Shown one piece after another: positions 2,515 to 49,104 of a stretch of DNA of 52,344 nt. The notes under the pieces were generated by a model that worked only from the letters and a program-made list of their open reading frames with translations, was not told the origin of the DNA and did not search any database. The DNA comes from Alphaproteobacteria bacterium (GTDB lineage: Bacteria > Pseudomonadota > Alphaproteobacteria > RF32 > CAG-239): positions 1 to 52,344 of the forward strand of contig JAFVFH010000036.1 in assembly GCA_017475525.1 (NCBI GenBank). Reading direction: 5' to 3'. The first letter of the stretch is position 1. Every line of letters starts with the position of its first letter. The position numbers were made by a program, and so were the translations under genes.

Positions 2515-4197
2515 ATGCAAAAAAAATTTTTTATACTGCCTTTGTTTGCTGCTTTTTTACTATCATCTAATGCAAAAGCGCTTGATTGTCCTTCAGGAAC
2601 AGTGGAAGGCACGAGTTGTTGGGCTGTATATGGAAGCGCACAGGCTGCGTATTTGATTAATGGTGTTTTGACCATACCTACGAATAGTTCTTATGCTAGC
2701 GCATCAAGCACACCATGGTATGGTTCTCGAAGTAAAATTACAAGCGTTGTCGTGACAGGCGGTGGTGGCATCGGAGCTTATGCTCTTGGCGGTTTATCAA
2801 AGGTAACAAGCGTGACATTTACCGGAAATACGTCCGGTTACATTTCTAAAAATGCTTTGAATGGTGCAACGTCATTAAAGACGTTGGTAATTCCAAAGGG
2901 AATGATGATTGAAAACGGAACTTTTACAGGATCCGGTGTGACAACGGTTGTTGCAGATAGGGATGCGGGGTTTGCATCAAAATCTTTTACAGGTCTTTCT
3001 TCAAGCGCCGTTTTGTATTGCGAAAGCGGTACAACCTGTTCAAGTGATGCTAAAAAAACAGGTTTTACCGGAACCGTCCGAAGTTATAATATCGACGCTA
3101 ATGGGGTGTATAGCTATAATGGTAAATATTTTGCTTCGGCGGATAATATGGGAAAAAATAATACATCGGGTTGTAGCACTTTGAGTGCCTGCACAACAAC
3201 AGTTAAAAACAACGAAATTGCCAAAATGGTATCCGAAGGAAAATATTGCAACTCAACAAGCACATGTTCGGCTTTATGGGATATGAAATCAAACGGTTAT
3301 TGTAGCGATTATACGGCGTGCAAAAAACTTTCGGATATGAAAAATGACGGCTATTGCACGGATTACAGCGATTGCAAAACGTTAGTCGATATGGCAAATG
3401 CAAAAACGTATTGCAAAACTATAGATACCTGTAAGGCATTGGTTGATATGAAAGCAAACGGTGATTGTGCAGACTATGCCAAATGTGTGAGTTTGCAACA
3501 AATGCAAACAGCCGGATGTGAGGCCGGAACGTATGATGCTTGCCTGAGCTTGTCACAAATGGAAGGTTGTGAGGGCTATACCGAATGTGCAAGCTTGCAA
3601 CAAATGCAAACAGCCGGATGCGAAGCCGGAACATATGAGGCTTGCTTGAGCTTGTCACAAATGGAAGGTTGTGAGGGCTATACCGAATGTGCAAGCTTGC
3701 AACAAATGCAAACAGCCGGATGCGAAGCCGGAACATATGAGGCTTGCTTGAACTTGTCACAAATGGAAGGTTGCTCGGGCTATGCCGAATGTGCCAGCTT
3801 GCAACAAATGCAAACAGCCGGATGTGAGGCCGGAACGTATGAGGTTTGTTTGAAGTTGTCACAAATGCAGACAAATGGCTATTGCGAAGATTACATTTCT
3901 TGTCAAGCTTTGCAGAATATGGCAGATACGAGCGATTTGTGTTCAACGCCGGAAAGTTGTAAAGAACTGATTGATATGTCAAGCGGAACTTTGTGCAACA
4001 CGCTTGAGAGTTGTCATGAGCTTGTGACAATGGCTAATGCTGGCGAAGTATGTTCAACAGCAGAGGAATGTAAAGCGTATCTTCACCAAAAAGCTGAAGA
4101 AGAACGTGCGTCAAAAATCAAGCGTATCTATACTATTGAAGAGGCAACGCGTCTTTCTAAAGAAACCGGCAACAAATTTAAATTAAGATATAAATAA
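2515..4197 (+). CDS. Secreted protein: N-terminal BspA-like LRR region, ~16-unit Cys-rich repeat array, and conserved C-terminal tail
   Basis: AGGAG RBS and signal peptide (LLSSNAKA). About 16 units of C-x5-6-C-x2-L-x2-M-x3-5. Ends in KRIYTIEEATRLSKETGNKFKLRYK. Confidence 0.8.
   Translation: MQKKFFILPLFAAFLLSSNAKALDCPSGTVEGTSCWAVYGSAQAAYLINGVLTIPTNSSYASASSTPWYGSRSKITSVVVTGGGGIGAYALGGLSKVTSVTFTGNTSGYISKNALNGATSLKTLVIPKGMMIENGTFTGSGVTTVVADRDAGFASKSFTGLSSSAVLYCESGTTCSSDAKKTGFTGTVRSYNIDANGVYSYNGKYFASADNMGKNNTSGCSTLSACTTTVKNNEIAKMVSEGKYCNSTSTCSALWDMKSNGYCSDYTACKKLSDMKNDGYCTDYSDCKTLVDMANAKTYCKTIDTCKALVDMKANGDCADYAKCVSLQQMQTAGCEAGTYDACLSLSQMEGCEGYTECASLQQMQTAGCEAGTYEACLSLSQMEGCEGYTECASLQQMQTAGCEAGTYEACLNLSQMEGCSGYAECASLQQMQTAGCEAGTYEVCLKLSQMQTNGYCEDYISCQALQNMADTSDLCSTPESCKELIDMSSGTLCNTLESCHELVTMANAGEVCSTAEECKAYLHQKAEEERASKIKRIYTIEEATRLSKETGNKFKLRYK
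3484..3865 (+). repeat. In-frame tandem repeat, 102-bp period, ~3.7 copies, inside CDS 2515..4197
   Basis: Copies start at 3484, 3586, 3688 and 3790. Each encodes the 34-aa unit CASLQQMQTAGCEAGTYEACLSLSQMEGCEGYTE. Copies 2 and 3 differ at about 5 of 102 nt by eye. Confidence 0.9.
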
Positions 4198-10646: not shown

Positions 10647-11360
10647 TTATTTATACCGCAATCTAAATGTATTTCCCGCCGGTTTGGAAACTTTGGTCGC
10701 TTCTTCAAGGGTATAAATACGCTTCGGAATATAGTTTCCGTTTTGCATATCCTTAAAATTGGCATATTTTTTGCCGCTAACAGAGTATCTTCCGTCAGCA
10801 TCTATAGTATATACATGAACGCCGGACGGCTTGCCTAAAGCTTTAAGACACTGCGCCGCAAGATTTTCGGGACAATAAAGCGATGCGTCAGTGTAAAAGG
10901 CATGATCGTCAATATATGTTGTCCCTTGAGGAACGGCAATATTTTCTACAGCAGAATTCATAAAAGCCGCACTGCCGATACGTGTCACCGTTTCAGGAAT
11001 GATGATACTTGTTTCCGCCAATTGGTAAAAAGCTGCTGCCCCGATTGATTCAATACCCTCTGATATCTCAATTCTTGTGATATCAAGCGCATAAGTGCCC
11101 CACGGTGCCGATGTTATATGTTGGCTTGTCCAGTTATTGTAAGGTAATACATATGAGTCAACTTGTTGAGAATAATAATCATACATATCTCCCGTGCCGG
11201 AAATCTCGAGTTTCCCATCACTGTATAGTTTCCAAGTGCAATTATCGCCGCATTTTGTCGTCGCATCATTCGGGTCTGTTTGAGCAATAATTGTTATTTC
11301 ATCGTTTGCCAGTACATTAAAACTTAAAATTAGACCCAAAATTAAAACAGTTTTCTTCAT
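10647..11360 (-). CDS. Secreted BspA-type LRR protein with conserved C-terminal tail
   Basis: Signal peptide. CGDNCTWKLYSDGKLEISGTG..APWG opening followed by LRR_5-like repeats. Ends in KRIYTLEEATKVSKPAGNTFRLRYK. Confidence 0.8.
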   Translation of the reverse strand: MKKTVLILGLILSFNVLANDEITIIAQTDPNDATTKCGDNCTWKLYSDGKLEISGTGDMYDYYSQQVDSYVLPYNNWTSQHITSAPWGTYALDITRIEISEGIESIGAAAFYQLAETSIIIPETVTRIGSAAFMNSAVENIAVPQGTTYIDDHAFYTDASLYCPENLAAQCLKALGKPSGVHVYTIDADGRYSVSGKKYANFKDMQNGNYIPKRIYTLEEATKVSKPAGNTFRLRYK

Positions 11361-11383
11361 AGTTTTTCTCCTGCATGATAAAT

Positions 11384-11543
11384 AAAAAAAACCACCTTGA
11401 AAAATCCAAAGTGGGAGCCCTAAAAACTGTCGCAGACAGACTCTCTTATTCGCCGCAAAATTGCGCTTATCTCGAGAACTCCCATTAAAAGGAGCTGTTC
11501 TGCGAAGATGTTTTTAGGAACACCATAGCCAACTCGGCTACAT
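11384..11543 (-). promoter_or_regulatory. Structured leader RNA, copy A (unclassified motif ending in an intrinsic terminator)
   Basis: Promoter TTGACT(11572-11577)-17-CAAAAT(11549-11554). Shares with copies B, C and D: two 5' hairpins, CUCC/GGAG hairpin, GAnAUAAG-hairpin-CGAAUAA, CUGU/ACAG hairpin, GCUCCC, then CCACTTTG/CAAGGTGG followed by T8. Confidence 0.7.
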
Positions 11544-11710
11544 TTTTTATTTTGCCATATTTGATTTTAAAAGTCAAAGAAAAAATATTAAAAAAAGACT
11601 TGATTTTTGCTTAAAATCGTGTATAAGCTCTTTTCTGTTAACCGGCGGAGCGGGCGAAATGGCATGCCTGACCGCTTGAATATCAATCCATTTTTATGAA
11701 GGAAGATAAA

Positions 11711-19141: not shown

Positions 19142-20170
19142 TTATTTATAGCGCAGTTTGAAGGTGTTGCCGGTTGGTTTGGAAACCTTCGTAGCCTCTT
19201 CAATGGTGTAGATGCGCTTGTTTTTATATCCGATGACATTACCGTCTTTATCAACGATAGTATAACTGCCGTCATTTTCATTGTAAATTTCTTTGTTTGA
19301 GCTTCTCATCGGTGCTTGTATCATGTTATATGTTCCTTTTTGATAACCTGCGGTGAGCATGTTCGCCTCACAAACGGAGATTTTTCCGGTGCAATGAATC
19401 GTAATCCCTTCCAATGGAAGATCCCTATCAAAACCATCGGCAAAGAAAATTCGACCATCGCTGTATGATATAACGTAATCGTTTGCATCAGGATATTGGG
19501 TAAAATATGCCATTGCTGCATCAACATCTTTTTGTGTGAAATAACCTGTTTCTATCCTTTCTTGTAATTGAAATTTGCCAAAATCATCGTCATAAATCAT
19601 ATATCTTGGAATTAAAATATCTTTTTCTGATGTTCTGATGGGTGTATGTTCCCCAATAGTGACATCTGTAAGTGGGACATTATAAAAGGCGTATGCTCCT
19701 ATGATCTCGACCGAATCGGGAATATCTATGCTCTGAAGCGATGAGTTTTGAAATGCATGCTCCCCAATTTTAGTTACACTATCTGGAATATTAATAGAAC
19801 TTAAAGTGTGAGATTCAAAGGCAAATTCTCCAATTTCTTTTAGTCCTTCAGGAAGATTCACACTTTGCATATGATTGTAAAATTCAATTCTATATGCAAA
19901 TGCCCCATTAGGTATTCTTTCTATACCTTTTTCAAGAGTTAAAGAAAAATTATCTTCATTAAGTTTGTTGCGAACTTCGTTATTCCAGACTTGTACAAAA
20001 TTTGCCGGTATTGTGTAAGTTATGGATGAATCATTTGGGCCGAGAATAAGTTGCCTCGTTTCGGAATTAAAAGTCCATTTGCAATTAGTGCCACAATCAT
20101 CACCCGTAAGAATTTCGGCATTTGCATGAAAAGTTGCAGCCAACCCCAAAATCAAAATCAATTTTCTCAT
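19142..20170 (-). CDS. Secreted BspA-type LRR protein with conserved C-terminal tail
   Basis: Signal peptide. CGTNCKWTFNSETRQLILG opening followed by IPDSV..IG..AF repeats. Ends in KRIYTIEEATKVSKPTGNTFKLRYK. Confidence 0.8.
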   Translation of the reverse strand: MRKLILILGLAATFHANAEILTGDDCGTNCKWTFNSETRQLILGPNDSSITYTIPANFVQVWNNEVRNKLNEDNFSLTLEKGIERIPNGAFAYRIEFYNHMQSVNLPEGLKEIGEFAFESHTLSSINIPDSVTKIGEHAFQNSSLQSIDIPDSVEIIGAYAFYNVPLTDVTIGEHTPIRTSEKDILIPRYMIYDDDFGKFQLQERIETGYFTQKDVDAAMAYFTQYPDANDYVISYSDGRIFFADGFDRDLPLEGITIHCTGKISVCEANMLTAGYQKGTYNMIQAPMRSSNKEIYNENDGSYTIVDKDGNVIGYKNKRIYTIEEATKVSKPTGNTFKLRYK

Positions 20171-20191
20171 ATTTTTTTTCCTTTACAAAAT

Positions 20192-20352
20192 AAAAACCGT
20201 TTAAGATAAACCAAAAACGGAGGAGCTAGAAAACTGCCATTGCACAGCTTGCTTTATTCGTGCGTCTGAATACGCCTTATTTCAACAACTCCTCTGCAAA
20301 GGAGCTATACAATGGATGTGTTTTCTAAACACCGCAACCATTTTGGTTACAT
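20192..20352 (-). promoter_or_regulatory. Structured leader RNA, copy B
   Basis: Promoter TTTACT(20381-20386)-17-CATAAT(20358-20363). The 5' 27 nt are identical to copy C. Same helices as the other copies, with terminator CCGTTT/AAACGG plus T5. Confidence 0.7.
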
Positions 20353-23304: not shown

Positions 23305-23458
23305 AAAAATCCTCATTTTTTATCAAAAAATTCTTGACAAAAATCGAAGGGAGGGTAAAATGGAAGTACAAACAAATTAGTATGGATAAAGTTATGTCAA
23401 CTATTAGCCGTGTGCTATCAGATGATAAGATTTTTTATGCTTTTATATTTTGTTTATA
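23305..23458 (+). repeat. Cassette 5' block, copy 1 (promoter plus conserved leader/uORF)
   Basis: About 85-90% identical by eye to 25332..25484. Contains TTGACA-16-TAAAAT and the uORF MSTISRVLSDDKIFYAFIFCL (23394..23459). Confidence 0.85.
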
Positions 23459-23485
23459 ATATTTAACTTATAAATTATTTTAGTT

Positions 23486-23860
23486 ATGAAAAAAATTGTC
23501 GTTTTCTTCGCTCTCCTCCTTACCCTTACCATGGTGCCTTGTTTCTCTCAGGAGAAAAAGGATACTACGACCACCAAAGCCGCAACGACGATCTCAGTCA
23601 CACCCGGATATCGTCTTGTCAAAAGGGTTACCATTATGCCAGAAGACAATCTTGGCGGTCCTTATGTTGTATTGTTGTTGGATCATGGCCAAATGGTCGA
23701 AATCCGACACCAAATCGGAGAAACATATTACCACAGACCAATTTATGGCACGGAAAAAAAAGCCTTTACGCTTCATCCGGGCGACGAAGTAATGATACGT
23801 CCGGATAGAAGAGGGAACTACATTCTAGTTAACGTTAAGTACTACATGCATACTTTATAG
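23486..23860 (+). CDS. Small secreted hypothetical protein (cassette 1 cargo)
   Basis: Signal peptide MKKIVVFFALLLTLTMVPCFSQ. No family recognised. Confidence 0.55.
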   Translation: MKKIVVFFALLLTLTMVPCFSQEKKDTTTTKAATTISVTPGYRLVKRVTIMPEDNLGGPYVVLLLDHGQMVEIRHQIGETYYHRPIYGTEKKAFTLHPGDEVMIRPDRRGNYILVNVKYYMHTL

Positions 23861-23876
23861 TTAATGTTAAGTTCAA

Positions 23877-23960
23877 GTAGTAACGTATAGCACACGAACC
23901 CCTCGGATTTTTGAAGTTTATCATGAAAATGATCTGCTTTGAAATACGAGGGATTTTTTA
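23877..23960 (+). repeat. Cassette 3' block, copy 1 (conserved sequence plus terminator)
   Basis: GTAGTAACGTATAGCACACGAACCCCTCGGATTTTTGAAGTTT matches 25703... CCCTCG pairs with CGAGGG (23947-23952), followed by T6. Confidence 0.8.
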
Positions 23961-23962
23961 TT

Positions 23963-25204
23963 TTAAAGCTCATCTTGGAGCAGAAAGTCTTTTAAGCCGA
24001 GTGTTAATATCCCATTATCATCAAAATAAGGCATAATGTCATTTTTTGTGACGATAATTTTCTTAAAACTGTCGTTTATTTTTAAAAGTGGGCGCTTTTC
24101 TTGAATTTGTTTTTCTTCAGTCGGCATTGAAAGTGCAGATTGAATATAATATTTTTTATTACCCTTGTTTGCAATAAAATCCACTTCAATCTTTTTGGGT
24201 TTATAACTCTCATTTGTTTTTTCATAAATATCAAGCTCTCCGATATCTACTTCAAAACCTCTGATTTTTAGCTCATTATAAATCACATTTTCCATAAGAT
24301 GAGATTCTTCAAGTTGCCTGAAATGTAAGCGGGCATTTCTTAACCCGACATCCGTAAAGTAGTATTTTGACGGCGTATTGATATATTTTTTGCCTTTGAT
24401 GTCATAGCGCAAAACTTTATCTAAGATAAATGAATCTTCCAGATAATTAAGATATGTTTTAATCGTTGGAGCTGAAATATCGGAATGTTTGAGAGTTTGA
24501 AATGTGTCTGAGAGCTTTTGCGGATTAATCAGACACCCGACGCATGAAGCAATGATATCTGTCAATTCGCTTAATTCTTGATTGTTTTTAATATTGTTTC
24601 GTTCTTCAATGTCCTTAAAATATGTTTCTAAAAACAAATCTTTCAGATATTTCACTTTTTCATCATCTGTGTTTTGGAGCACGGCAAGAGGCATTCCTCC
24701 GAAAGTATAATACTGACGCCACGCGTCTTCAAAATGATCGCCGAAAGCATCAAAAAATTCTTTAAAACTTAAAGGGAAAACTCTAATTTCGTCACCGCGT
24801 CCGCGAAATTCTGTGACAACATCGGTTGATAAAAATTTTGAATTAGAACCTGTCACATACACGTCTAAATTTTTAATGTGTAAAAAGCCATTTAAAACAT
24901 CTTCAAAATTGCCCATCATTTGCACTTCATCAAGCAAAAGATAGTGCATTTTTTCATCTTTAATGGAAGCTTTAACATATTGATAACAATTATCCGGATT
25001 GCGATATTCACGCTTTGCATAATCATCTAAGGCAAGGTGTATAATATGGTCTTTTTTAACACCGCTGCCCAAAAGGTGTTTTTGGAACAATTCGCTCAGA
25101 AGATATGATTTTCCTGACCGCCGAATACCGCTGATGATTTTAATAAGCCCGTTGTGTTTGTGCGAAATAATTTGATTCAAATATCTGTCTCTTGCAATTT
25201 TCAT
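23963..25204 (-). CDS. AAA-family ATPase with DUF4143-type C-terminal domain
   Basis: Walker A GIRRSGKS. Walker B-like LLLDEVQ. 413 aa overall, matching the AAA_14/DUF4143 architecture as recalled. Confidence 0.7.
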   Translation of the reverse strand: MKIARDRYLNQIISHKHNGLIKIISGIRRSGKSYLLSELFQKHLLGSGVKKDHIIHLALDDYAKREYRNPDNCYQYVKASIKDEKMHYLLLDEVQMMGNFEDVLNGFLHIKNLDVYVTGSNSKFLSTDVVTEFRGRGDEIRVFPLSFKEFFDAFGDHFEDAWRQYYTFGGMPLAVLQNTDDEKVKYLKDLFLETYFKDIEERNNIKNNQELSELTDIIASCVGCLINPQKLSDTFQTLKHSDISAPTIKTYLNYLEDSFILDKVLRYDIKGKKYINTPSKYYFTDVGLRNARLHFRQLEESHLMENVIYNELKIRGFEVDIGELDIYEKTNESYKPKKIEVDFIANKGNKKYYIQSALSMPTEEKQIQEKRPLLKINDSFKKIIVTKNDIMPYFDDNGILTLGLKDFLLQDEL

Positions 25205-25331: not shown

Positions 25332-25484
25332 AAAAATCCTCATTTTTTATCAAAAAACTCTTGACAAAAATCGGGGGGGGGTAAAATGGAAGTAATAAAC
25401 AAATTAGTGTGGATGATTTATGTCAACTATTAGCCGTGTGCGATCGGATGATAAGATTTTTTCATACTTTATATTTTGTTTATT
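25332..25484 (+). repeat. Cassette 5' block, copy 2
   Basis: Paralog of 23305..23458. Contains the uORF MSTISRVRSDDKIFSYFIFCLLKPNV (25420..25500). Confidence 0.85.
25361..25387 (+). promoter_or_regulatory. Sigma70-like promoter with a G9 homopolymer in the spacer
   Basis: TTGACA(25361-25366), a 15-nt spacer containing G9 (25373-25381), then TAAAAT(25382-25387). Copy 1 has a 16-nt spacer with the interrupted sequence GAAGGGAGGG. Confidence 0.6.
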
Positions 25485-25517
25485 AAAACCGAATGTTTAA
25501 CAATTAAAATAGAAGTT

Positions 25518-25706
25518 ATGAAAGTTATCTTTGTAATTCTCAGTGTAGTATTTGTTCTCTTTTCCATTATGATGAGTATTCTTCTCATTAACTGGAAAAA
25601 GACATCTCATTCCATAAAAGAATGGGATTTCAGAGATTGGCTTTCCGTTTCACTTTGTGTGACGGAAATGCTGGTCTCGCTCATACTGTGCTACTTGCTG
25701 ATGTAG
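25518..25706 (+). CDS. Small two-TM membrane protein (cassette 2 cargo)
   Basis: 62 aa with two hydrophobic helices (VIFVILSVVFVLFSIMMSILLI; LSVSLCVTEMLVSLILCYLL). ATG 25518 aligns with the ATG of cassette 1. Confidence 0.5.
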   Translation: MKVIFVILSVVFVLFSIMMSILLINWKKTSHSIKEWDFRDWLSVSLCVTEMLVSLILCYLLM

Positions 25707-25785
25707 TACACGTAGCACACGAACCCCTCGGATTTTTGAAGTTTTTTACGCAAGTGATTGACTAAAAAATCCGAGGCTTTTTTTA
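25703..25785 (+). repeat. Cassette 3' block, copy 2 (conserved sequence plus terminator)
   Basis: GTAGTACACGTAGCACACGAACCCCTCGGATTTTTGAAGTTT. CCTCGGATTTTT pairs with AAAAAATCCGAGG, followed by T7. Confidence 0.8.
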
Positions 25786-25861
25786 TTTTAATTTCCCTCT
25801 TTATTTTTATTCAAAATAGATTATATTTGAAAAATCTGATAAAATAAGTTGGAGAAAGTTC

Positions 25862-36796: not shown

Positions 36797-36955
36797 GTGC
36801 AGCGGGTTGTTGCAGTGTCTAATCAACACTTAAAATCCGAGGAAACTCCTCATGAAGGGGAGTTCTTGAGATAAGCATATTTTATGGCGAATAAAAGAGT
36901 CTGTTCTCGGACAGTTGATTAGCTCCCCGTTTTGATTTTTCAAAGCGGTTTTTTT
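36797..36955 (+). promoter_or_regulatory. Structured leader RNA, copy D (upstream of the pilin-like gene)
   Basis: Promoter TTGATT(36763-36768)-17-TATGAT(36786-36791). Same helices and conserved single-stranded blocks as the other copies. Terminator CCGTTTTGA/TCAAAGCGG plus T7. Confidence 0.7.
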
Positions 36956-36976: not shown

Positions 36977-37627
36977 ATGATGAATAAAGAAAATGGTCGT
37001 TCTATGGTCGAAATGCTGGGTGTTTTGGCGATTGTCGGGGTATTGAGCGCAGGTGCTTTGGCAGGCTATTTGAAAGCAATGACGCAACATAAACTCAATA
37101 AACATACACAAGAAATCAGTTATCTTTTGGCAACGGCAATTTATAATCAAGACAAAATCATTGATACAAATTCACAAGAAGAGTACATATCAGCTTTAGA
37201 TGCTCTTGGAGCTTTTACATGGACGACAAATTTGCAAAATCAAGGAGAATCAACATATAAAATCATGACAGACAGCCTTCAAAATACCATATCTTTTGAG
37301 CACAGTGCAGGTAGCGGTACGGCCTTTGTTGTCATTTTAAATAAGTCTGATTTCAGGATGAAGGTGTGTTACAATTATATCAACATTTTCAAAAACCTTT
37401 CAAATGAACTCGACGTAATTTATGTAACAAGAAGTAAAACAGGACAAGCAAAAGAGAGAAATACATATATTGGCAAAACATGCACATCAGAAAAATGTTT
37501 GGAAACTATAACAAATACTGATATTTCAGAACTTTGCGGACAAGTGTGTGATGACGCGGACAGGTGTGTTTTATATGCCCTTTGGGGTTATCCTGCATCA
37601 ACAGTGGCAGGTTTGCTCGGGCAATAA
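36977..37627 (+). CDS. Type IV pilin/pseudopilin-like protein with non-canonical prepilin signal
   Basis: MMNKENG|RSMVEMLGVLAIVGVLSAGALAGY: Gly, then Glu at +5, then a hydrophobic helix. Arg at +1 is unusual. Cys-rich C-terminus. Confidence 0.6.
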   Translation: MMNKENGRSMVEMLGVLAIVGVLSAGALAGYLKAMTQHKLNKHTQEISYLLATAIYNQDKIIDTNSQEEYISALDALGAFTWTTNLQNQGESTYKIMTDSLQNTISFEHSAGSGTAFVVILNKSDFRMKVCYNYINIFKNLSNELDVIYVTRSKTGQAKERNTYIGKTCTSEKCLETITNTDISELCGQVCDDADRCVLYALWGYPASTVAGLLGQ

Positions 37628-41134: not shown

Positions 41135-41998
41135 ATGCTTCTTGTATTACTGATAAATATTTTAATTGTCGGAGCCGGATACGGGCTGATTGCAATAGCC
41201 TTTGCCGTGATGAGCTCTGTTTCTCCTTTTTTTAACTTAACCCTTGGCTCTATTATCGCGTTTGGCGCCTATGGCACATACGGTTTAACCGAATACGCGC
41301 ATTTGCCGATGGCTGTTGCTATTGTGATCAGCATTGCTTTTTGTGCTTGTGCGGCGGCTTTGCTTGAGAGATTTGTTTATACACCTTTGAGAACAAGGGG
41401 GGCTTCTTCAATGGTGCTTTTGGTTGCCTCGTTAGGCCTTTATACGATTTTTGAAGCCTCTATTCATCTTGCTTTCGGTCCGCAATATCAAATTTTAGGC
41501 GGTGCTTTGGGGCAAAACATGAATCTCGGCATTTTTTCAATGCCGAAAGTGCAGTTTATCACGATTGTCGCAGATTTTATTGTTTTCGGGCTCGTTAATC
41601 TTTTGTTGTTCCATACGTTTTTCGGCAAAATGGTGCGAGCCCTCAATGACAGTGCCAAACTGGCGAATATAACGGGGTTGAACAATAACAAAATCATTTT
41701 GATTGTCTCAATGCTTTCCGGCTTGATTTTGGGGCTTTCGGGTGTTTTAACCGGCTTTGATACGGGCCTTGAGCCGACAATGGGCTTTAATTTGTTGTTT
41801 AAGGGAATGATTGGTGCCATCATCGGCGGCTCCGGCTCGTTGTATGGGCCGTTTTTAGGCGCGTTCTTTTTGGCGGCAGCCGAAAATGTCGGGGTGATGC
41901 TTTGGGCTTCCGAGTGGCGTGACTTGGTTGCGTTTGTGATTTTCATCATCTTTTTGATATTCCGCCCGCAAGGCATTTTTCAAAGGAAGGAAAAGTAA
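41135..41998 (+). CDS. livH: Branched-chain amino acid ABC transporter permease (LivH-type)
   Basis: About 8 TM helices. Family-typical GYGLIA, MVRALNDS..LA...G, and IIGG.GS..G. ATG 41135 preferred over GTG 41123. Confidence 0.8.
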   Translation: MLLVLLINILIVGAGYGLIAIAFAVMSSVSPFFNLTLGSIIAFGAYGTYGLTEYAHLPMAVAIVISIAFCACAAALLERFVYTPLRTRGASSMVLLVASLGLYTIFEASIHLAFGPQYQILGGALGQNMNLGIFSMPKVQFITIVADFIVFGLVNLLLFHTFFGKMVRALNDSAKLANITGLNNNKIILIVSMLSGLILGLSGVLTGFDTGLEPTMGFNLLFKGMIGAIIGGSGSLYGPFLGAFFLAAAENVGVMLWASEWRDLVAFVIFIIFLIFRPQGIFQRKEK

Positions 41999-43102
41999 AT
42001 GCTTAAAAAATTGATTTTGAGTTTATGTTTTATTTTAGCGCTTAGCGCTTGCAAGGAAGAGAACAAAACCCAAGCGCAAGCAAAACCCGTCATCAAAATC
42101 GGTGCTAATTTACATTTAACAGGTCAGCTTGCTCATACGGGAGCGGGTGCAAAAAATGCATTGCAAATGGCTTTTGAAAAGTGGCAAAAAAAAGACACGA
42201 AATATCGCTATGAATTGATTTTTGAAGATGATATGATGAAAACGCAACAGGCTGCCGTTAATACACAAAAATTGATTAATATTGACGGCGTTCGTGCCGT
42301 TTTGTCTTTGTTTGGTATTGTTGATCGAGTGATTGATGATATTGCAAATCAAAACAAGGTTATTTCCGTGTCATGCTCTTACGGCAAAAGCGAGGTGCCT
42401 GAATATGGGGTGAACACCGGTGCTCAGAATGAAGAAATTTATGGCGCCGTTGTCCGTCAACTCAAAAAAGAAAATGTCAAAACCGTTGTGTTAGAAGGTT
42501 CTCAATCAGCTGTCAGCTTTGCTATTTTGGATTATTTTGCGGCGCATTTACCGCAAGATGGTATCAAGGTTCTTGCAAATGAAAAACATAATTTAGATGT
42601 CAGAGATTTTCGCACTTCCATACAAAAAACAGAAGTCCTAAAACCTGATTATTACCTGATTTTCGGGGTTGAGCCGATGAACAGTATTTTTACAAAACAA
42701 TACCGTGAAATAACAGGCAAAAATAATTTAGCTTCGCTCGGAAATTTTCCTGAAATAGCCGATTCTCTGTGGCCTAATTTGGAGGGGCTTTGGTCTGCTT
42801 CACTCATTGGCGGAACATCTGAATTTTCTCAGCAGTATGAAACACGCTTTCACGATAGAGTGCATGGTTGCTCGGCAAATTTATATGATGCTCTCAATAT
42901 GTTGATGATGGCTTTTGAAAATGCGCCTGTAAAAGAAGGAAAAGACATTCCGGAAAATATAGATGTCGTTCAATATATGCGCCATATCGGCACGTATAAT
43001 GGCGCTTTCGGAATGATTGAAATGGGTATAAACGGTATAGGTCATCCGAGTGTTGATATTGTCAAACTTCAAAACGGAAAATGGGTAAAAATTGGGGAGT
43101 AA
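41999..43102 (+). CDS. Type-1 periplasmic-binding-fold (LivK-like) substrate-binding lipoprotein, paralog 1
   Basis: Lipobox LALSAC followed by KEENK. IKIGANLHLTGQ.A..G. Closest paralog is 48010..49104. Confidence 0.75.
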   Translation: MLKKLILSLCFILALSACKEENKTQAQAKPVIKIGANLHLTGQLAHTGAGAKNALQMAFEKWQKKDTKYRYELIFEDDMMKTQQAAVNTQKLINIDGVRAVLSLFGIVDRVIDDIANQNKVISVSCSYGKSEVPEYGVNTGAQNEEIYGAVVRQLKKENVKTVVLEGSQSAVSFAILDYFAAHLPQDGIKVLANEKHNLDVRDFRTSIQKTEVLKPDYYLIFGVEPMNSIFTKQYREITGKNNLASLGNFPEIADSLWPNLEGLWSASLIGGTSEFSQQYETRFHDRVHGCSANLYDALNMLMMAFENAPVKEGKDIPENIDVVQYMRHIGTYNGAFGMIEMGINGIGHPSVDIVKLQNGKWVKIGE

Positions 43103-43106
43103 TAAC

Positions 43107-44192
43107 ATGAAAAAACTGATATTAATTTTAGGTTGTGTTTTAGCCCTTTCGGCGTGTAAGGAAGAAAACAAGCAACAAGGGAAAGAAAAACCCGTTGTTA
43201 AAATCGGGGCGATTTTGCCTTTAACGGGAGGCGCAGCGGCTTTAGGTGCTTCGCTTAAAGCCGGCACAATGGCCGCCCTTGAAGACAAAGAAAAAGAGGG
43301 CTTAAAATATCACTATAAGGTTGTTTTTGAAGACAATCAGCACATGCCGGCAAAAACGGCACCGGCGGCAAACAAGTTGATTGCATCGGATAAAGTCAAT
43401 ATGCTTTTAACTTTCACAACAGGCCCCGGACGCGTCGCTGCGCCTATTGCTGAGAGCGCAGGCCTGCTTCAAATGTGTGCCACGCTTGAAAATGAATTTG
43501 CCGAACCGATGGGAAAGACCACATTTTTCCAAGGTCCGACGGTTCAAAGCTATCAGCGGATTTTGCTCAGTGCACTTGAAAAACGCGGTATTAAAAAAAT
43601 CGCGATGCTTGCGGCAAATGTCGGCGTTGCTTGTTCGGGAACAGAGGCTCTCTCAAAAATGCTCTCTCAAAAAGATATTGAAAATGAGGTTGAGTGCTTC
43701 AATCCGTCGGATAGAGATTTCAGATTGCCCATTCAAAAATATGTCAAAGAAGGGTATGAATATTTTTATTTGCAGTTTTTCCCACCGCAAACAGATATTT
43801 TGGTGCGCGAATTAAAAGCGCAAAATATTGCGCCCGAGCATATTTTCGGCTCAGGTATTGATACGGGTTCTGACGTTTCGCTTTTTGAAAATATCAATCA
43901 CGTCGGCGGAAGCTCAGGTACACAGGCGTTTATTGATCGCTTAATGGCGGAATACAAAATTGACAATGTTTATATGGCGGCTTCTTCTTATGACCTGATT
44001 GGTCTTGCCATAGATGCTTTTGAAAATGCGCGCGACATCAAAAATATTGATGAAATTGTGGCTTATATCAAAGCACACGCAACGCGCAAATGCGAATCCG
44101 GCGATTGCAGGCTTTTGGAAAACGGCTTTATTGCAAACGAAGCCGAATGGCGCACATATATTGGCGGTAAACCGGTTGCTTTGGAGGAGTGA
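43107..44192 (+). CDS. LivK-like substrate-binding lipoprotein, paralog 2
   Basis: MKKLILILGCVLALSACKEENK. VKIGAILPLTGGAAALG. Confidence 0.75.
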   Translation: MKKLILILGCVLALSACKEENKQQGKEKPVVKIGAILPLTGGAAALGASLKAGTMAALEDKEKEGLKYHYKVVFEDNQHMPAKTAPAANKLIASDKVNMLLTFTTGPGRVAAPIAESAGLLQMCATLENEFAEPMGKTTFFQGPTVQSYQRILLSALEKRGIKKIAMLAANVGVACSGTEALSKMLSQKDIENEVECFNPSDRDFRLPIQKYVKEGYEYFYLQFFPPQTDILVRELKAQNIAPEHIFGSGIDTGSDVSLFENINHVGGSSGTQAFIDRLMAEYKIDNVYMAASSYDLIGLAIDAFENARDIKNIDEIVAYIKAHATRKCESGDCRLLENGFIANEAEWRTYIGGKPVALEE

Positions 44193-44197
44193 TAACG

Positions 44198-45064
44198 GTG
44201 GAATATTTAATCAATCTCGGTATTTTGTTTTGTATTTATGCCATGCTCGCTTTGTCACTTAATATGGTGGTCGGGCTCTCGGGGCTTGTGTCGCTTGCCC
44301 ATGCCGCATTTTATGGCATAGGCGCTTATGCCGTGGCGATTTTGATGACGATGCACGGCTTTGGTTTTTGGTCCTCGATGCTTGCGGGCGTCGTCTTAAA
44401 CGGCATAACGGCATTTGCCGTTGGCAAAATTCTTTCAAAATTCAAGGGTGATTATTATGCGATTGTGTCGGCAGGGTTGTCGGTGATTGTGTTTTCGGTT
44501 CTGCTTAACTTTAAGTCTTTAACAAAAGGCCCGCTTGGCATATACGGCATCGGCAAACCTTCTGTTGCAGGTTTTCATTTTTCTTCTTCCTTATCATTTT
44601 TGGCGCTTGCGTTTGTTTTTGTGGTGCTTTTTTATGCGCTTTTCGTGTTGATAGATAAATCCTCATTCGGCAGAGCCTTAAAAGGCTTGCGAGAAGATGA
44701 AGTTTTGACGGTGTCATTGGGCTATAAAACAACAAAATATAAAAGCCTCATCTTCACATTATCTGCCATGATGGCGGGTGTTGCAGGCAGTTTTTTTGCA
44801 AGCTATATTGCTTTTATTGACCCGACATCGTTTCAGCTTGCAGAAGGCATTTTCTTCTTTACGATGATAACTGTCGGCGGTCTTTCGTCAGCTTTCGGGA
44901 GCGTTGTTGGTGCGGCGCTTTTGCTAATACTTCCGGAGGCCTTGCGCTTTTTGGGACTTCCGTATGAAACGGCGGCACAACTTCAACAGCTCATATACGG
45001 TGCGCTTCTTGTGATGATGATGGCTTTTCGCCCGCAAGGGTTGTTTGGAAAATTTAAGGTATAA
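44198..45064 (+). CDS. livM: Branched-chain amino acid ABC transporter permease (LivM-type)
   Basis: GLSGLVSLAHAAFYGIGAY. GGAGGAG RBS 8 nt before GTG 44198; GTG 44189 is an alternative start. Confidence 0.8.
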   Translation: MEYLINLGILFCIYAMLALSLNMVVGLSGLVSLAHAAFYGIGAYAVAILMTMHGFGFWSSMLAGVVLNGITAFAVGKILSKFKGDYYAIVSAGLSVIVFSVLLNFKSLTKGPLGIYGIGKPSVAGFHFSSSLSFLALAFVFVVLFYALFVLIDKSSFGRALKGLREDEVLTVSLGYKTTKYKSLIFTLSAMMAGVAGSFFASYIAFIDPTSFQLAEGIFFFTMITVGGLSSAFGSVVGAALLLILPEALRFLGLPYETAAQLQQLIYGALLVMMMAFRPQGLFGKFKV

Positions 45065-45067
45065 AAA

Positions 45068-45889
45068 ATGGCAATAAACGAAATCTTAAAAAAATATAAG
45101 TCGATAGATAAAGGGCTTGCGAGTGAGCGAATGGACGTTTTTCAAGAAGGTCTGGATGCCGTTTCAACGCTTCATTTGAGCAAATCGTTTATGGGTATTA
45201 AAGCTGTGAATGATTTGAGTATTTCTTTTCCTTTAGGGTTGGTCACAGGGCTCATCGGCCCGAACGGCTCAGGTAAATCAACGCTGATTAATTTGCTGAC
45301 AGGACTGCTCACTCCCGATGCCGGCTCAATTGTTATTTCAGGTCGTGCATTTCCTTATATCAAACCGTATAAGCTCCGCAAATTTAAGATGGCGCGCACT
45401 TTTCAAGATGCCAGACTTGTGGAACAACTCAGTGTTGAAGACAACCTGCTTTTGAGCGTGGCGCAAAATAAAATAGAAAAGAGCCTGTTTGAATTGAGCA
45501 CAAAAGCATATCGCAAAAAACTTGAGGGAATATTGATTAAAACAGGCTTGAAAGATCATCGCTTCAAAAAAGCGGAAGAGCTTTCTTACGGGCAAAGAAA
45601 GCTCTTGGAAATCGGCAGAGCTTGGATGCAGGAAGCTGATATTTATATTTTTGATGAGCCGTTTACGGGGCTTTCGCCGCAAATGGTTGAAGAGGTTTTA
45701 TCCATTATTGAAATTTTGCGTGTTGAAGGCAAAACGGTGATTTTGATTGAACATAATATGGGCCTGATTGAAAAGCTTTCGGACTATGTGATTGTCTTAG
45801 ACCATGGAACGCTTCTTGCCTCAGGCGCACCGAAAGATGTTTTGAAAAACAAACTTGTCCAAGAAGCATATTTGGGAGTACAAAAATAA
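45068..45889 (+). CDS. livG: Branched-chain amino acid ABC transporter ATP-binding protein (LivG-type)
   Basis: GPNGSGKST, LSYGQRKLLEI, IFDEPFTGL. Confidence 0.85.
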   Translation: MAINEILKKYKSIDKGLASERMDVFQEGLDAVSTLHLSKSFMGIKAVNDLSISFPLGLVTGLIGPNGSGKSTLINLLTGLLTPDAGSIVISGRAFPYIKPYKLRKFKMARTFQDARLVEQLSVEDNLLLSVAQNKIEKSLFELSTKAYRKKLEGILIKTGLKDHRFKKAEELSYGQRKLLEIGRAWMQEADIYIFDEPFTGLSPQMVEEVLSIIEILRVEGKTVILIEHNMGLIEKLSDYVIVLDHGTLLASGAPKDVLKNKLVQEAYLGVQK

Positions 45890-46905
45890 TGGCAAGCTTG
45901 ACAGATAAAAACACGCCGTTTTTTGCTGATGTTGCAGAATTGCTGCAAACTGCACGTTCTAAAGCATATCGGGCAGTTAATTCCATTATGGTAGAAACAT
46001 ATTGGAAAATCGGCGAGCGAATTGTCAAAGAAGAACAAAACGGTAAAAGTCGTGCTGAATATGGTGAAAAATTGATTGAAAATCTTTCGCGTTATTTAAC
46101 GGATACTTTTGGAAATGGCTTTTCTGAAGCTAATTTACAGAATTTTCGCCGCTTTTATCTGACCTTTCCCGAATTTCCTACACACTGTGTAGGGAATCTG
46201 TCTTGGTCTAATATTCGTTATATTATGCGGCTTGATAGCAAAGAAGAACGCGAATATTATATGCGTGAATCAGCTGAACAAAATTGGTCATTTCGCGTCT
46301 TAGAACGCAATATAAAGTCAGGTTATTACCATCGTTTGCTGTCAACACAGCAAAAAAATATCGCACCTATCGAAAATTTGCCGGCAGAAATTAAGGCTCA
46401 AGATTTCATCAAAGATCCATATGTTTTGGAATTTTTGGATGTGCCGGAAAATATTGAGGGCAAGGAAAGTCTTTTGGAAAAAGAGCTGATTGCGCACTTG
46501 CAAAAGTTTTTGCTCGAGCTCGGTAAGGGCTTTTCTTTTGTTGCACGCCAACAGCGTATCAGCACGGAAACAGAGCATTTCTACGCAGATTTGGTATTTT
46601 ATAACTACATTTTGAAGTGTTTTGTTGTCATAGACTTAAAAACCGACAAGTTAACGCACGCAGATATCGGGCAAATGGATATGTATGTCAGAATGTTTGA
46701 CGAATTAAAACGCGGTATTGATGACAATCCGACAATCGGTATTATTCTTTGCACGGATAAAAGCGAGACAATGGTTAAATATTCCGTTTTAAAAGAAAAT
46801 AAGCAGTTATTTGCCAGCAAATATAAAACCATTTTACCAACGGAAGAAGAGTTGGCTGATATGCTTGCCGCGGAAAATTCGCGACTTTTAGCAGATAAAT
46901 CATAA
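45889..46905 (+). CDS. DUF1016/YhcG-family PD-(D/E)XK nuclease-like protein embedded in the liv operon
   Basis: TARSKAYRAVNSIMVETYWKIGERIV. FYADLVFYNYILKCFVVIDLK (D...D-x-K core), similar to E. coli YhcG as recalled. The ATG overlaps the livG TAA (TAATG). Confidence 0.75.
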   Translation: MASLTDKNTPFFADVAELLQTARSKAYRAVNSIMVETYWKIGERIVKEEQNGKSRAEYGEKLIENLSRYLTDTFGNGFSEANLQNFRRFYLTFPEFPTHCVGNLSWSNIRYIMRLDSKEEREYYMRESAEQNWSFRVLERNIKSGYYHRLLSTQQKNIAPIENLPAEIKAQDFIKDPYVLEFLDVPENIEGKESLLEKELIAHLQKFLLELGKGFSFVARQQRISTETEHFYADLVFYNYILKCFVVIDLKTDKLTHADIGQMDMYVRMFDELKRGIDDNPTIGIILCTDKSETMVKYSVLKENKQLFASKYKTILPTEEELADMLAAENSRLLADKS

Positions 46906-46926
46906 AGATAATTGAAAGGAAATAAA

Positions 46927-48006
46927 ATGAAGAAACTGGTTTTAATTTTAAGTTGCATTTTAGCCCTTGGCGCTTGTAAGGAAGAAAAACAGGAGGTGCA
47001 GGCAAAGCCTGTCATCAAAATCGGTGCAAGCTTGCCATTATCTGGCAATATGGCCTCAATCGGCAATGCGGCGCATAAGGCCTTAATCGCTTCTTTTAAA
47101 GACATCAATCAAAATCCGAAAAATAAATATTATTACGAGTTGATAATGGAAAATGACCAAATGGATCCGAAACTGGTCAATAATATTGCCCATAAATTGA
47201 TATATAACGATAAAGTCAATGTGATTATTTCTTATTTTTCTGTTGCGAATAGAATTGTTGCTCCCATGGCTGTTAAAAACAAACTTATCAATTTTATGAT
47301 AGGTTTTGGTGACGATTCGCTTATCAGCCCTTATAATTTTCAAAACTTTTTGACAGTTGAAGCCGAAAATGAGGCTGTTGTTGAGTTTTTTAAAAAACAT
47401 AAGGTTAAAAATGTTGATTTGATTTATCAAAATATCGGTGCGGCTGACGAATTTTTAGCCCCGCTTTTGCCGAAGCTCGAAGCTGAAAATATTGGCTATA
47501 CGGTGCACCGTTTCAATAAAGGAGAGCGTGATTTTAAGATTTTGATCTCTAAAATTAAAGAATCTCCCTCCGAAGCCGTTTTCATATATGCGTTTGAGCC
47601 GGAGGCTGACATCTTGACGCAAGAAATTCGCACACAAAATCTCGAAAAATATATTGCTTATAATGATGGTTTGCCGATGACAAACAATTATTTGATTTAT
47701 GAAGGCTATTATAACATCGGCTCAATCATGACTTCTGAAAATTTGAAAAAAACATGGGGTCTTGAGGGACAAAATGCCGCTTATGCCATGTATCTTTATG
47801 ATACGGGGAAAATCATTGCTGAGGCTTATGAAAATGCACCCACGCAAAACAAAATTCCGAATGCGGATGAACTGTCAAAGTATTTGCATTCAAAACCAAA
47901 ATATTCCGGACTTGTCGGGGATTTTTGGCTTGATGAAAAAGGGCAGTTTCATTCTAAAGGACAAACCACAATTGTTAAAAACGGTCAAATGACGACAGAG
48001 GAGTAA
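46927..48006 (+). CDS. LivK-like substrate-binding lipoprotein, paralog 3
   Basis: MKKLVLILSCILALGACKEEK. IKIGASLPLSGN. Confidence 0.75.
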   Translation: MKKLVLILSCILALGACKEEKQEVQAKPVIKIGASLPLSGNMASIGNAAHKALIASFKDINQNPKNKYYYELIMENDQMDPKLVNNIAHKLIYNDKVNVIISYFSVANRIVAPMAVKNKLINFMIGFGDDSLISPYNFQNFLTVEAENEAVVEFFKKHKVKNVDLIYQNIGAADEFLAPLLPKLEAENIGYTVHRFNKGERDFKILISKIKESPSEAVFIYAFEPEADILTQEIRTQNLEKYIAYNDGLPMTNNYLIYEGYYNIGSIMTSENLKKTWGLEGQNAAYAMYLYDTGKIIAEAYENAPTQNKIPNADELSKYLHSKPKYSGLVGDFWLDEKGQFHSKGQTTIVKNGQMTTEE

Positions 48007-48009
48007 AAA

Positions 48010-49104
48010 ATGAAAAAACTGATTTTAATTTTAAGTTGTGTTTTGGCTCTTTCGGCGTTTAAGGAAGAAAAAGCTCAAACACAGGCAAAGCCTGTTATTC
48101 GGATAGGGGTAACATTGCCTTTAACAGGAGGCTTCGCGGAAACGGGGCTTTCGGCAAAAGAGGCTGTGATAATGGCTTTTGAAAAATGGCAGTCTGAAAA
48201 TACAAAATATGATTATGAATTATTTATTGAAGATGATGCATCTCAGCCTCAAAAAGCAGCCTTAAATGCACAAAATTTTATTAACACCAAAAATGTGAGC
48301 GCTATTATTTCTTTGTTTGGGATAGTTGATCGACCGATTGATGAAATTGCAAATCGCAACAAAGTGATCAGCCTTTCATGCTCTTATGGTAAAATGAATG
48401 TTCCCGAATATGGTGCAAATAATTGCATTCAAAATAAAACAGTGGCAGAAACGCTCATCCCCAAATTAAGAAAAGAAGCCATCAAAAAAATTGCACTTGT
48501 GATGGCAAACACAAATGCGAGTCTTACTGTCGGTGATTATTTTGCCGATCTTTTGCCTAAAGAGGGTTTCAAGGTTGTGGCATATGAAAAATATAATATG
48601 GATACACGCGATATGCGTATGTCAATTTTAAATATGGAGGCAAAAAATCCTGATTATTATTTGACTTTCGCAACTCGCCCTTTAACGGATATTTTTGTAA
48701 AGCAGCTTCGTGAAACAACAGGAAAAAATAATGTTGCGTCTTTTGGCAGTTTTACGGAAATGGATCCTTCTTTATTCTACTTGATTGAAGGTTTGTGGAC
48801 AATTGACACGACAGCCGGCACAGATGAATTTGAATCTGAATTTACAACAAAAACCAATCATAAACTGAAAGGATGCAGTGCCAATTCTTATGATAATCTG
48901 GATATGCTGATTTGGGCTTTTGAAAACACGCCGGTCGAAAATGGAAAGCCTATACCTGATAATATGGATGTGGTCAAAACCATTAAAAATATTAAAAATT
49001 GGAAAGGTGCAACAGGCTTGATAAGTTTTCATGATGGTGTGGCAAGTCCGAAAGCAAAATTAAAAATGTATCAAAACGGCAAATGGGAAACCATAGAGGA
49101 GTAA
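48010..49104 (+). CDS. LivK-like substrate-binding protein, paralog 4 (lipobox Cys replaced by Phe)
   Basis: MKKLILILSCVLALSAFKEEK: codon 17 is TTT where paralogs 1 and 2 have TGT. Otherwise closely similar to paralog 1. Confidence 0.75.
   Translation: MKKLILILSCVLALSAFKEEKAQTQAKPVIRIGVTLPLTGGFAETGLSAKEAVIMAFEKWQSENTKYDYELFIEDDASQPQKAALNAQNFINTKNVSAIISLFGIVDRPIDEIANRNKVISLSCSYGKMNVPEYGANNCIQNKTVAETLIPKLRKEAIKKIALVMANTNASLTVGDYFADLLPKEGFKVVAYEKYNMDTRDMRMSILNMEAKNPDYYLTFATRPLTDIFVKQLRETTGKNNVASFGSFTEMDPSLFYLIEGLWTIDTTAGTDEFESEFTTKTNHKLKGCSANSYDNLDMLIWAFENTPVENGKPIPDNMDVVKTIKNIKNWKGATGLISFHDGVASPKAKLKMYQNGKWETIEE

Follow-up and report, generated by a model that had tools for sequence, protein, structure and literature searches.

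The sequence examined here, called the window below, is a stretch of 52,344 nucleotides (nt) from an Alphaproteobacteria bacterium (GTDB lineage RF32; CAG-239; assembly GCA_017475525.1, contig JAFVFH010000036.1). The open reading frame (ORF) at 10647-11360 on its minus strand encodes a protein with a signal peptide and BspA-type leucine-rich repeats (LRR) (LRR_5, E = 2e-13), and the region upstream of it, at 11384-11577 and read as the reverse complement, holds a leader that occurs four times in the window (copies A to D, copy A being the one at this locus). The pattern GGAGTT..ATAAG..GAATAA was found at exactly these four places and never in 100 shuffles. All four copies have the same layout, in which a promoter is followed by about 150 nt of structured RNA, then by an intrinsic terminator, and finally by the Shine-Dalgarno (SD) sequence of a gene and the gene itself. 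We propose that this leader probably represents an uncatalogued family of cis-acting, riboswitch-like transcription attenuators.

In the RNA sense, copy A starts with a predicted promoter of the sigma-70 type, from which transcription would begin about 7 nt past the extended -10 element. Two hairpins (H1 and H2), a linker, the sequence CUCCUU (the anti-P1 strand) and a short loop precede the core, which reads UGGGAG-UUCUC-GAGAUAAG-(CGCA AUUU UGCG)-GCGAAUAA-GAGAG-U-(CUGU CUGCG ACAG)-UUUUUAGGG-CUCCCA. After the core come a terminator hairpin of 10 bp with a run of eight U, a spacer of 11 nt, AGGAG, a spacer of 7 nt and the ATG. Compared with shuffled sequence, the fold of copy A has a z score of -4.6. 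The core is a three-way junction of P1, P2 (composed of P2a, a conserved internal loop and P2b) and P3, which is supported by the comparison of many related copies described below.

These copies came from a species-level genome scan (one genome per species) with the pattern ATAAG..CGAATAA..A..CTGT..CAGTT, made up of the junction and loop blocks alone. It returned at least 102 loci, with about 91 true copies among the matches listed. The hosts of these are nearly all metagenome-assembled genomes (MAGs) of uncultured Alphaproteobacteria, or of organisms designated only as proteobacterium, from gut or rumen; several are labelled 'uncultured Azospirillum sp.', and we take these gut and rumen MAGs to correspond to GTDB order RF32. 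The copies form two sequence groups with intermediates between them, group I (GAGGAGUU), which is like the copies of the window, and group II (GGGGAGCU). MAFFT alignment of both groups together shifted the 3' strand of P1 and H2 by one column. For this reason, only 43 group I sequences went into the covariance model of the core, and all others were aligned to it. The model recognized at least 113 copies from 92 sources, 14 of them outside the pattern. In the retrieved loci, which are cited here by labels such as L001 or L096, at least 17 copies belong to a single MAG, RUG13121. Pattern matches in two IMG/VR contigs, which could have indicated a phage origin, failed the covariance model and are chance matches.

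None of the 4227 covariance models of Rfam 15 matched anywhere in the window at the gathering threshold, and the same search of 18 related loci holding at least 30 copies gave two tRNAs and nothing else. At E < 10, the interval 11300-11700 gave only chance-level matches (mir-737, STnc480, snoRNAs and similar), with 14-21 bits at the leader against gathering scores of 40-115. A full-text literature search found no description of the element.

Over the alignment of 113 copies, the core is paired at 98.3%, against 78.2% in shuffles, and pairing falls to 37-50% when the partners are slid by one to three columns; 16 of the 19 pairs change on both sides. As this alignment is fitted to the model, anchor-based parsing and MAFFT-only alignments were added. 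P1 (GRGGAG/CUCCYC) has 5-8 bp, and its two outer pairs alternate between G-C and A-U (73 and 35 copies at one, 79 and 19 at the other), the exchange in group I alone being 14 to 31. Within the window P1 is UGGGAG..CUCCCA in copy A, GAGGAG..CUCCUC in B and C and GGGGAG..CUCCCC in D. Rarer forms are also compensated, namely GAGGGAG/CUCCCUC, with a matched insertion, GGAAGGAG/CUCCUUCC in L096, CGGAUG/CAUCCG and CUGGGAA/UUCCCAG. The inner four pairs of P1 and the stem of P3 (CUGU/ACAG) are almost invariant, compensation in P3 being seen in L078 (CCGU/ACGG) and L001 (CUAU/GUAG). P2a, in which the five nt after GGAG pair with the five nt after CGAAUAA, has 41 combinations of arms and is fully paired in 94 of 96 copies. 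Each of the four pairs of P2b changes on both sides (CGCA/UGCG in A, GCGU/ACGC in B, CAUA/UAUG in D, minimal in C), and three L096 copies have a GUAAUAUGUUGAAUAA loop in place of P2b. The columns GAnAUAAG and CGAAUAA are invariant, which is partly fixed by the search pattern, and most of the 14 copies that only the covariance model detected retain them.

An initial annotation, made from the four copies of the window, had proposed that a GGGAGUU core covaries with a 3' partner GGCUCCC through an A-to-G change matched by a U-to-C change, and had named independent variation of the pairs in a larger alignment as the contrary outcome. The strings that it quoted are all present in the four copies, P1 is compensated, the G-C and A-U counts of the outer pairs reproduce the exchange on a much larger scale, and the pairs do not vary independently. 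The GGAG/CUCC pairing was read correctly and the register was not: the UU (or CU, AU) after GGAG does not pair with the AG or GG before CUCC, and opens P2a instead of belonging to P1. The hairpin between AUAAG and CGAAUAA, described as keeping its pairing while changing in sequence and length, behaves so as P2b. Covariation had likewise been claimed for the 5' hairpin, and in the group I alignment five of the six pairs of H1 change on both sides, with stems UAGCC/GGCUA in A, UAACC/GGUUG in B and C and CAGC/GUUG in D; in group II this stem has widely differing sequences. The present analysis adds the helices alpha and beta, the nt that P1 and the terminator have in common, and the broad distribution of the element.

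The preference of that annotation for RNA structure over a protein-binding site in DNA is also upheld. Compensatory changes connect helix strands separated by as much as about 110 nt, promoter, leader, terminator, SD and gene succeed each other in a strand-specific order, and G-U pairs are frequent (UG 22, 15, 14 and 28 times at four pairs in the 113 copies), which fixes the strand, because these wobbles would be C-A on the other one. That the conserved blocks are instead operators bound by a protein has in its favor that group II genes encode helix-turn-helix (HTH) proteins and that a palindrome covers the -35 box of group II promoters; however, the palindrome lies outside the leader, and we regard this explanation as extremely improbable.

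The near-palindrome (TTAATTGCAAATTAA or TTAATTGCATTTTAA) is located about 100-115 nt upstream of the ATAAG block at loci including L002, L005, L018, L032, L056 and L062. It is a candidate operator for the downstream HTH protein of the XRE type and would add autoregulation at the DNA level.

Some copies depart from the common form. In L026 (about 1082-1245), about 165 nt are inserted between CAGUU, the start of J3/1, and the 3' strand of P1 with the terminator, and this is also the case in L006 and L024. Similar inserted sequence is present in at least two MAGs, and the L026 copy has a mismatched P2a. This may be a copy in decay, or the inserted sequence may be an additional domain or a mobile element. 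The divergent copies L078 1530-1603 (+) and L001 6291-6357 (-) score 33 and 31 bits; compensatory changes in otherwise invariant pairs of P1 and P3 preserve their fold, their loop blocks are altered (CCAAAUAA, GCAAAUAA) and they have no obvious anti-P1. They may be a diverged subclass.

Two long-range helices tie the 5' part of the leader to the core. Alpha pairs the loop region of H2 with J3/1, and beta pairs the linker with the loop and 5' arm of P3. Their strands are different in every copy and retain complementarity, as is seen for the H2 loop and J3/1 strands of alpha in copies A (CCUAAAAAC and GUUUUUAGG), B (UUAGAAAAC and GUUUUCUAG), C (UCAUUAAC and GUUAAUGA) and D (CUAAUCAAC and GUUGAUUAG). 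Over 112 copies, the duplex energy of alpha is -8.7 kcal/mol with the cognate partner vs -3.9 with non-cognate partners (sequences differing by at least 3 nt), and that of beta (loop) is -8.25 vs -2.8 kcal/mol; control upstream segments showed no cognate advantage in duplex energy. A MAFFT-only alignment of 46 group I leaders has changes on both sides at six of the seven pairs of alpha and at all six of beta, and RNAalifold picks both helices unaided. In the anchor-based table, which covers both groups, 414 of 552 cells are paired at positions 3-8 of alpha, vs 250 ± 9 when shuffled. The stem of H2 covaries as well, its third pair being U-A in 41 and A-U in 35 distinct copies. In group II, a 5-bp H2 stem is followed by one unpaired G and then by 5-6 loop nt that pair to J3/1. 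This is the geometry of a canonical H-type pseudoknot, and therefore alpha, and by analogy beta, may well coexist with P1, P2, P3 and H2 as pseudoknots.

RNAfold of the four window leaders returned alpha and beta and neither P1 nor P3. It can be asked whether alpha and beta belong to an OFF conformer only, the whole leader refolding between this state (extended alpha, extended beta, anti-P1 and P2) and an ON state with H2, P3 and P1. The minimum free energy (MFE) structure of all four window leaders is exactly that nested OFF fold, RNAalifold leaves out P1 and P3, the linker also complements the 5' arm of P3 in several copies (in A, CGCAGA-ACAG with CUGUCUGCG), and the GGAGU of H2 in group II complements ACUCC of the P1 3' strand. 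However, the extension of beta is absent in C, D, L002 and L031, group I has no clean extension of alpha, the H2 stem covaries on its own, and the 1-nt loop 1 of the group II pseudoknot makes coexistence with P1 plausible. Such a global refolding seems to us possible and rather unlikely, and we favor alpha and beta as pseudoknots on the P1 fold.

The GRGGAG strand of P1 is complementary both to the CUCCUY (anti-P1) upstream of it and to the CUCCYC downstream. For 102 of 112 copies the anti-P1 hairpin is predicted to form (mean -6.4 kcal/mol), and the cognate duplex has -8.7 vs -7.5 kcal/mol for non-cognate ones. In L096, GGAAGGAG pairs downstream with CUCCUUCC and upstream with UCCUUC, and compensating variants of anti-P1 are UCCUUC/GAAGGA there and CUCCUG/CGGGAG in L033 and L061. 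A U tract follows the terminator stem in 105 of 112 copies. In the most frequent arrangement (53 copies) the stem begins 3 nt into the 7-nt 3' strand of P1, and the last 2-3 nt of this strand form the stem pairs adjoining the U tract; when P1 is forced, the predicted terminator is shortened by the 2-3 bp nearest the U tract. From the U tract to the start codon there are 20-45 nt in most copies, SD included, which leaves no room for a second promoter.

According to these data, the anti-P1 hairpin would form first during transcription. While anti-P1 is paired with the 5' strand of P1, the full terminator would form and the gene would be off, and pairing of the 5' with the 3' strand of P1 would close the junction at the expense of the terminator base, allowing read-through and turning the gene on. 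The two partners of the P1 5' strand would be mutually exclusive, four segments would act as a classical attenuator, and, as judged from the sequences, mutually exclusive helices would link the structured domain to the terminator. The polarity in which P1 is the ON state is slightly favored over its reverse. The initial annotation had the long-range helix competing with the 5' hairpin; a competition is indeed predicted, the competitor being the CUCC..GGAG hairpin just upstream and not H1. An antiterminator formed by H1 and the 5' arm of the terminator, suggested by complementarity in B and C, was discarded as inconsistent in group II on inspection.

In group II (e.g. L005, L031, L057 and L083) the U tract (UUUUGUUUU or UUUCUUUUU) complements an A-rich stretch (AAAACAAAA or AAGAAA) directly preceding the SD GGAGUU, and an extra hairpin is predicted in read-through transcripts.

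Control could also be exerted on translation, if the CUCC freed by the switch paired with the GGAG of the SD of the gene. CUCC has the sequence of an anti-SD, the genes have GGAG as their SD (GGAGUU in group II), and CUCC and GGAG elements are equal in number in each leader. However, in nearly all copies a full intrinsic terminator stands between switch and SD, the nearest CUCC is 40-70 nt away from the SD, and both elements are invariant, so that covariation is uninformative here. We consider translational control improbable.

At L096 2330-3330 there are three units of promoter, leader and terminator with no gene, repeated every 243-247 nt, and a fourth unit after them leads into an HTH gene; tandem copies are also present in L014, L047, L038, L091, L078, L022 and L003. 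The leader may also be a stand-alone RNA, or such arrays a multi-stage gate. Taken further, the terminated RNA of about 160 nt could itself be the product, acting in trans as a multi-copy small RNA or decoy, with its upstream position secondary. The gene-less units, the tandem copies and the strong terminator at the end of every unit agree with this. On the other hand, nearly all copies are followed, at 20-45 nt and in the same orientation, by the SD and start codon of a gene from one of only three classes, and the variable segments complement their own molecule and not a common target. It is thus doubtful that the RNA acts mainly in trans, a role which could in any case coexist with control in cis.

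Several points weigh against the leader being a transcription attenuator of the kind proposed. The promoter, the transcription start and the termination are all predictions. The copies are related to each other, and therefore pair counts overstate the number of independent events; pairing of inner P1 and of the P3 stem, being nearly invariant, rests on few divergent copies, and anti-P1 shows little covariation, since U can pair with A and with G. P1 and the terminator overlap by just 2-3 nt, so that both might coexist by fraying or stacking, or the polarity might be reversed. Nested-only energy models place the P1-forced state 5.5-14.5 kcal/mol above the MFE structure, in which anti-P1, alpha and beta are formed. 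Since pseudoknots are not modelled, these energies cannot decide between the two states, and in such models the P1 state would be competitive only if alpha and beta persisted as pseudoknots or an effector contributed energy. Moreover, gene-less tandem units exist, and the gene set is without enzymes or transporters, hence it gives no pointer to a metabolite.

To survey the gene set, the ORF that comes first downstream of a copy was scanned against Pfam for 77 distinct copies. The set comprises 23 proteins with LRR_5 (BspA-type), about 20 with an XRE-type HTH (HTH_31, HTH_25, HTH_3, HTH_19) and 5 pilin-like proteins with an N-terminal methylation motif; NCBIfam gave weak LRR-adhesin and prepilin matches and nothing for the HTH proteins. 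Group I copies are mostly found before LRR and pilin genes, and group II copies before HTH genes, which have about 75-130 codons and were monocistronic among housekeeping genes in the two loci examined.

As to what the leader senses, a small ligand that binds to the invariant junction or to the internal loop is the candidate that we would put first, at somewhat less than an even chance, with an RNA-binding protein and another kind of cue each a little less probable. It is likewise conceivable, with about the same reserve as for the ligand, that the leader is a new riboswitch class, probably a doubly pseudoknotted three-way-junction aptamer by which a small signal (a second messenger, for instance, or a cue from the host or the gut) would turn on a genome-wide regulon of adhesins, pilins and XRE regulators.

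The same architecture could be read by an RNA-binding protein that recognizes the internal loop or junction and GGAG/CUCC, with no small molecule involved. The genes encode surface proteins, pilins and XRE regulators, none of them metabolic, the many copies per genome resemble protein-controlled regulons, and the sequence-invariant P1 and P3 would suit sequence-specific contacts. Large pseudoknotted folds with a conserved junction are commoner in ligand aptamers than in the known targets of protein-dependent antiterminators, and the present fold is large, probably doubly pseudoknotted and has such a junction; no candidate protein is linked to the loci in the two examined, and no ANTAR-type paired hexaloops or RAT-like element were seen on inspection. 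A protein effector is thus judged less likely than a ligand, without being far-fetched. The absence of matches to the proteins of cyclic di-GMP (c-di-GMP) signalling also fits it: tblastn with generic consensus queries for GGDEF, EAL, PilZ and HD-GYP gave no match at E < 1e-4 in the window and the 102 loci (about 770 kb of genome fragments). This hints that the clade may be devoid of c-di-GMP signalling, as far as such approximate queries can tell, and it weakens the guess that c-di-GMP is the signal, while leaving it possible.

Features of copy A and of the other leader copies in the window (forward-strand positions)
Feature	Position	Strand	Remarks
Copy A, predicted sigma-70-type promoter	11549-11577	-	TTGACT (11572-11577), 17-nt spacer, extended -10 TGgCAAAAT with hexamer at 11549-11554; equivalent promoters upstream of all copies
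Copy A, H1	11525-11541	-	GUAGCC GAGUU GGCUAU; hairpin at 5' end of predicted transcript
Copy A, H2	11507-11524	-	GGUGUU CCUAAA AACAUC
Copy A, alpha 5' strand	11510-11518	-	CCUAAAAAC; within H2
Copy A, linker (beta 5' strand)	11495-11504	-	CGCAGAACAG; partner is P3 loop and 5' arm (CUGUCUGCG)
Copy A, anti-P1 strand	11489-11494	-	CUCCUU; local hairpin with P1 5' strand
Copy A, P1 5' strand	11479-11484	-	UGGGAG; putative switching strand
Copy A, P2a 5' strand	11474-11478	-	UUCUC
Copy A, conserved internal-loop strand	11466-11473	-	GAGAUAAG; consensus GAnAUAAG
Copy A, P2b	11454-11465	-	CGCA AUUU UGCG; variable hairpin
Copy A, conserved internal-loop strand	11446-11453	-	GCGAAUAA; consensus nCGAAUAA
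Copy A, P2a 3' strand	11441-11445	-	GAGAG
Copy A, P3	11427-11439	-	CUGU CUGCG ACAG; stem nearly invariant, variable loop pairs with linker (beta)
Copy A, J3/1 (alpha 3' strand)	11419-11427	-	GUUUUUAGG; partner is H2 loop
Copy A, P1 3' strand	11412-11417	-	CUCCCA; last 3 nt are first 3 nt of terminator stem
Copy A, predicted intrinsic terminator	11384-11414	-	Stem-loop 11392-11414 (CCACUUUGG AUUUU UCAAGGUGG), U8 at 11384-11391
SD and start codon of ORF 10647-11360	11358-11372	-	AGGAG 11368-11372, ATG 11358-11360
Pattern match (GGAGTT..ATAAG..GAATAA), copy A	11446-11482	-	
Pattern match, copy B	20254-20292	-	
Pattern match, copy D	36859-36894	+	
Pattern match, copy C	51784-51813	+	
Copy B, H1 to U tract	20187-20350	-	Covariance-model core 20219-20295; then ORF 19142-20170 (LRR protein)
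Copy D, whole leader	36799-36955	+	Core 36856-36929; then ORF 36977-37627 (prepilin-like N terminus)
Copy C, whole leader	51725-51879	+	Core 51781-51849
ORF after copy C	from 51929	+	Runs off the window; signal peptide, LRR-like
AUG-stop, copy A	11538-11543		
AUG-stop, copy B	20347-20352		
AUG-stop, copy C	51722-51727		

At the predicted 5' end of copies A-C an AUG stands directly before a stop codon (AUGUAG or AUGUAA), overlapping the start of H1. A leader peptide was considered and rejected, since neither copy D nor group II has this arrangement and there is no conserved ORF. The LRR proteins encoded after A and B, of 237 and 342 amino acids (aa), share a common C-terminal end (10647-10724 and 19142-19219; 77% DNA identity over 78 nt).

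Elsewhere in the window, a region of about 0.66 kb is duplicated (23305-23966 and 25332-25791, with 82-89% identity); it has promoter-like TTGACA..TAAAAT and a terminator-like hairpin (CCCCUCGG..CGAGGG and a U run), and it flanks an ORF of 124 aa in the first copy. Four tandem repeats of 102 nt at 3363-3867, the best three of them 87-93% identical, give a 34-residue protein repeat in ORF 2515-4197. At 41985-49104, four paralogous genes of about 365 codons with lipoprotein-like N termini (MKKLILILGCVLAL..C) are arranged as two pairs around an apparent transporter cluster.

If the interpretation given above is right, the leader is an uncatalogued family of regulatory RNA with eight helices, two of them long-range and copy-specific, which is present in multiple copies per genome in a clade of Alphaproteobacteria from gut and rumen that is known from metagenomes alone. 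The genes that it would control encode LRR proteins of the BspA type, pilin-like proteins and small regulators of the XRE type, and they are the likeliest mediators of contact with host or other cells. Its effector, once found, would reveal a signal for surface remodelling in these uncultured bacteria. The family is a candidate orphan riboswitch with a testable switch, in which anti-P1, P1 and terminator would compete, and its more than 100 compensated variants are a natural library for structure-function work.

Among known RNAs, the core GAnAUAAG..CGAA partly resembles the CUGAUGA..GAAA of the hammerhead ribozyme. This candidate was rejected, given that the blocks lie in the internal loop of P2 and an equivalent of G8 is absent, and the Rfam models of self-cleaving ribozymes matched nothing in the window, the leader or the 18 loci. 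The internal loop is also reminiscent of the UAA/GAN motif, reportedly described by Lee, Gutell and Russell in 2006: the GAnAUAAG strand has GAN and UAA, and the CGAAUAA strand has GAA and UAA, so that the signature appears twice, as for two modules placed back to back, a likeness which concerns sequence only.

Riboswitches of the c-di-GMP-I and c-di-GMP-II classes are known in many copies per genome, and tandem arrangements occur. Our family is like c-di-GMP-I (GEMM-I, RF01051) and c-di-GMP-II (RF01786) in the kind of genes controlled, and unlike them in its conserved nt, with no match to either covariance model at E < 10. In C. difficile, c-di-GMP-II riboswitches control a type IV pilin operon and surface adhesins (PMC11477304).

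With the leaders of the ANTAR, RAT/BglG-LicT and T-box systems it would share an antiterminator opposed to the base of a terminator, and multiple targets per genome. The ANTAR target consists of two short hairpins side by side, whose hexanucleotide loops have A in position 1 and G in position 4, and its second hairpin overlaps the terminator, whereas on inspection the loops of H1 and H2 have 5-9 nt, are variable, and neither hairpin overlaps the terminator. As for the T-box, RF00230 did not match and there is no evident specifier or bulge pairing with the tRNA acceptor end. Attenuators of the trp type follow a logic of 1:2, 2:3 and 3:4 pairings, and the predicted succession of anti-P1 with P1 5' strand, P1 5' with P1 3' strand, and P1 3' strand with terminator has the same exclusive character. 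Unlike them, our leader has no leader peptide, and its 2:3 pair, which is no simple hairpin, has a structured domain of about 65 nt between its strands.

The adenine-responsive pbuE/ydhL purine riboswitch is a transcriptional ON switch with a three-way-junction aptamer. The leader differs from it in having no Rfam purine match, in the two long-range helices that tie a 5' domain (H2 and linker) to J3/1 and the P3 loop, in its upstream anti-P1 strand, in the terminator overlap of 2-3 nt and in its non-metabolic genes. Both have in common a promoter-proximal junction of three helices closed by P1, a 3' strand of P1 that is shared with an intrinsic terminator, and conserved nt near the junction beside variable distal hairpins.

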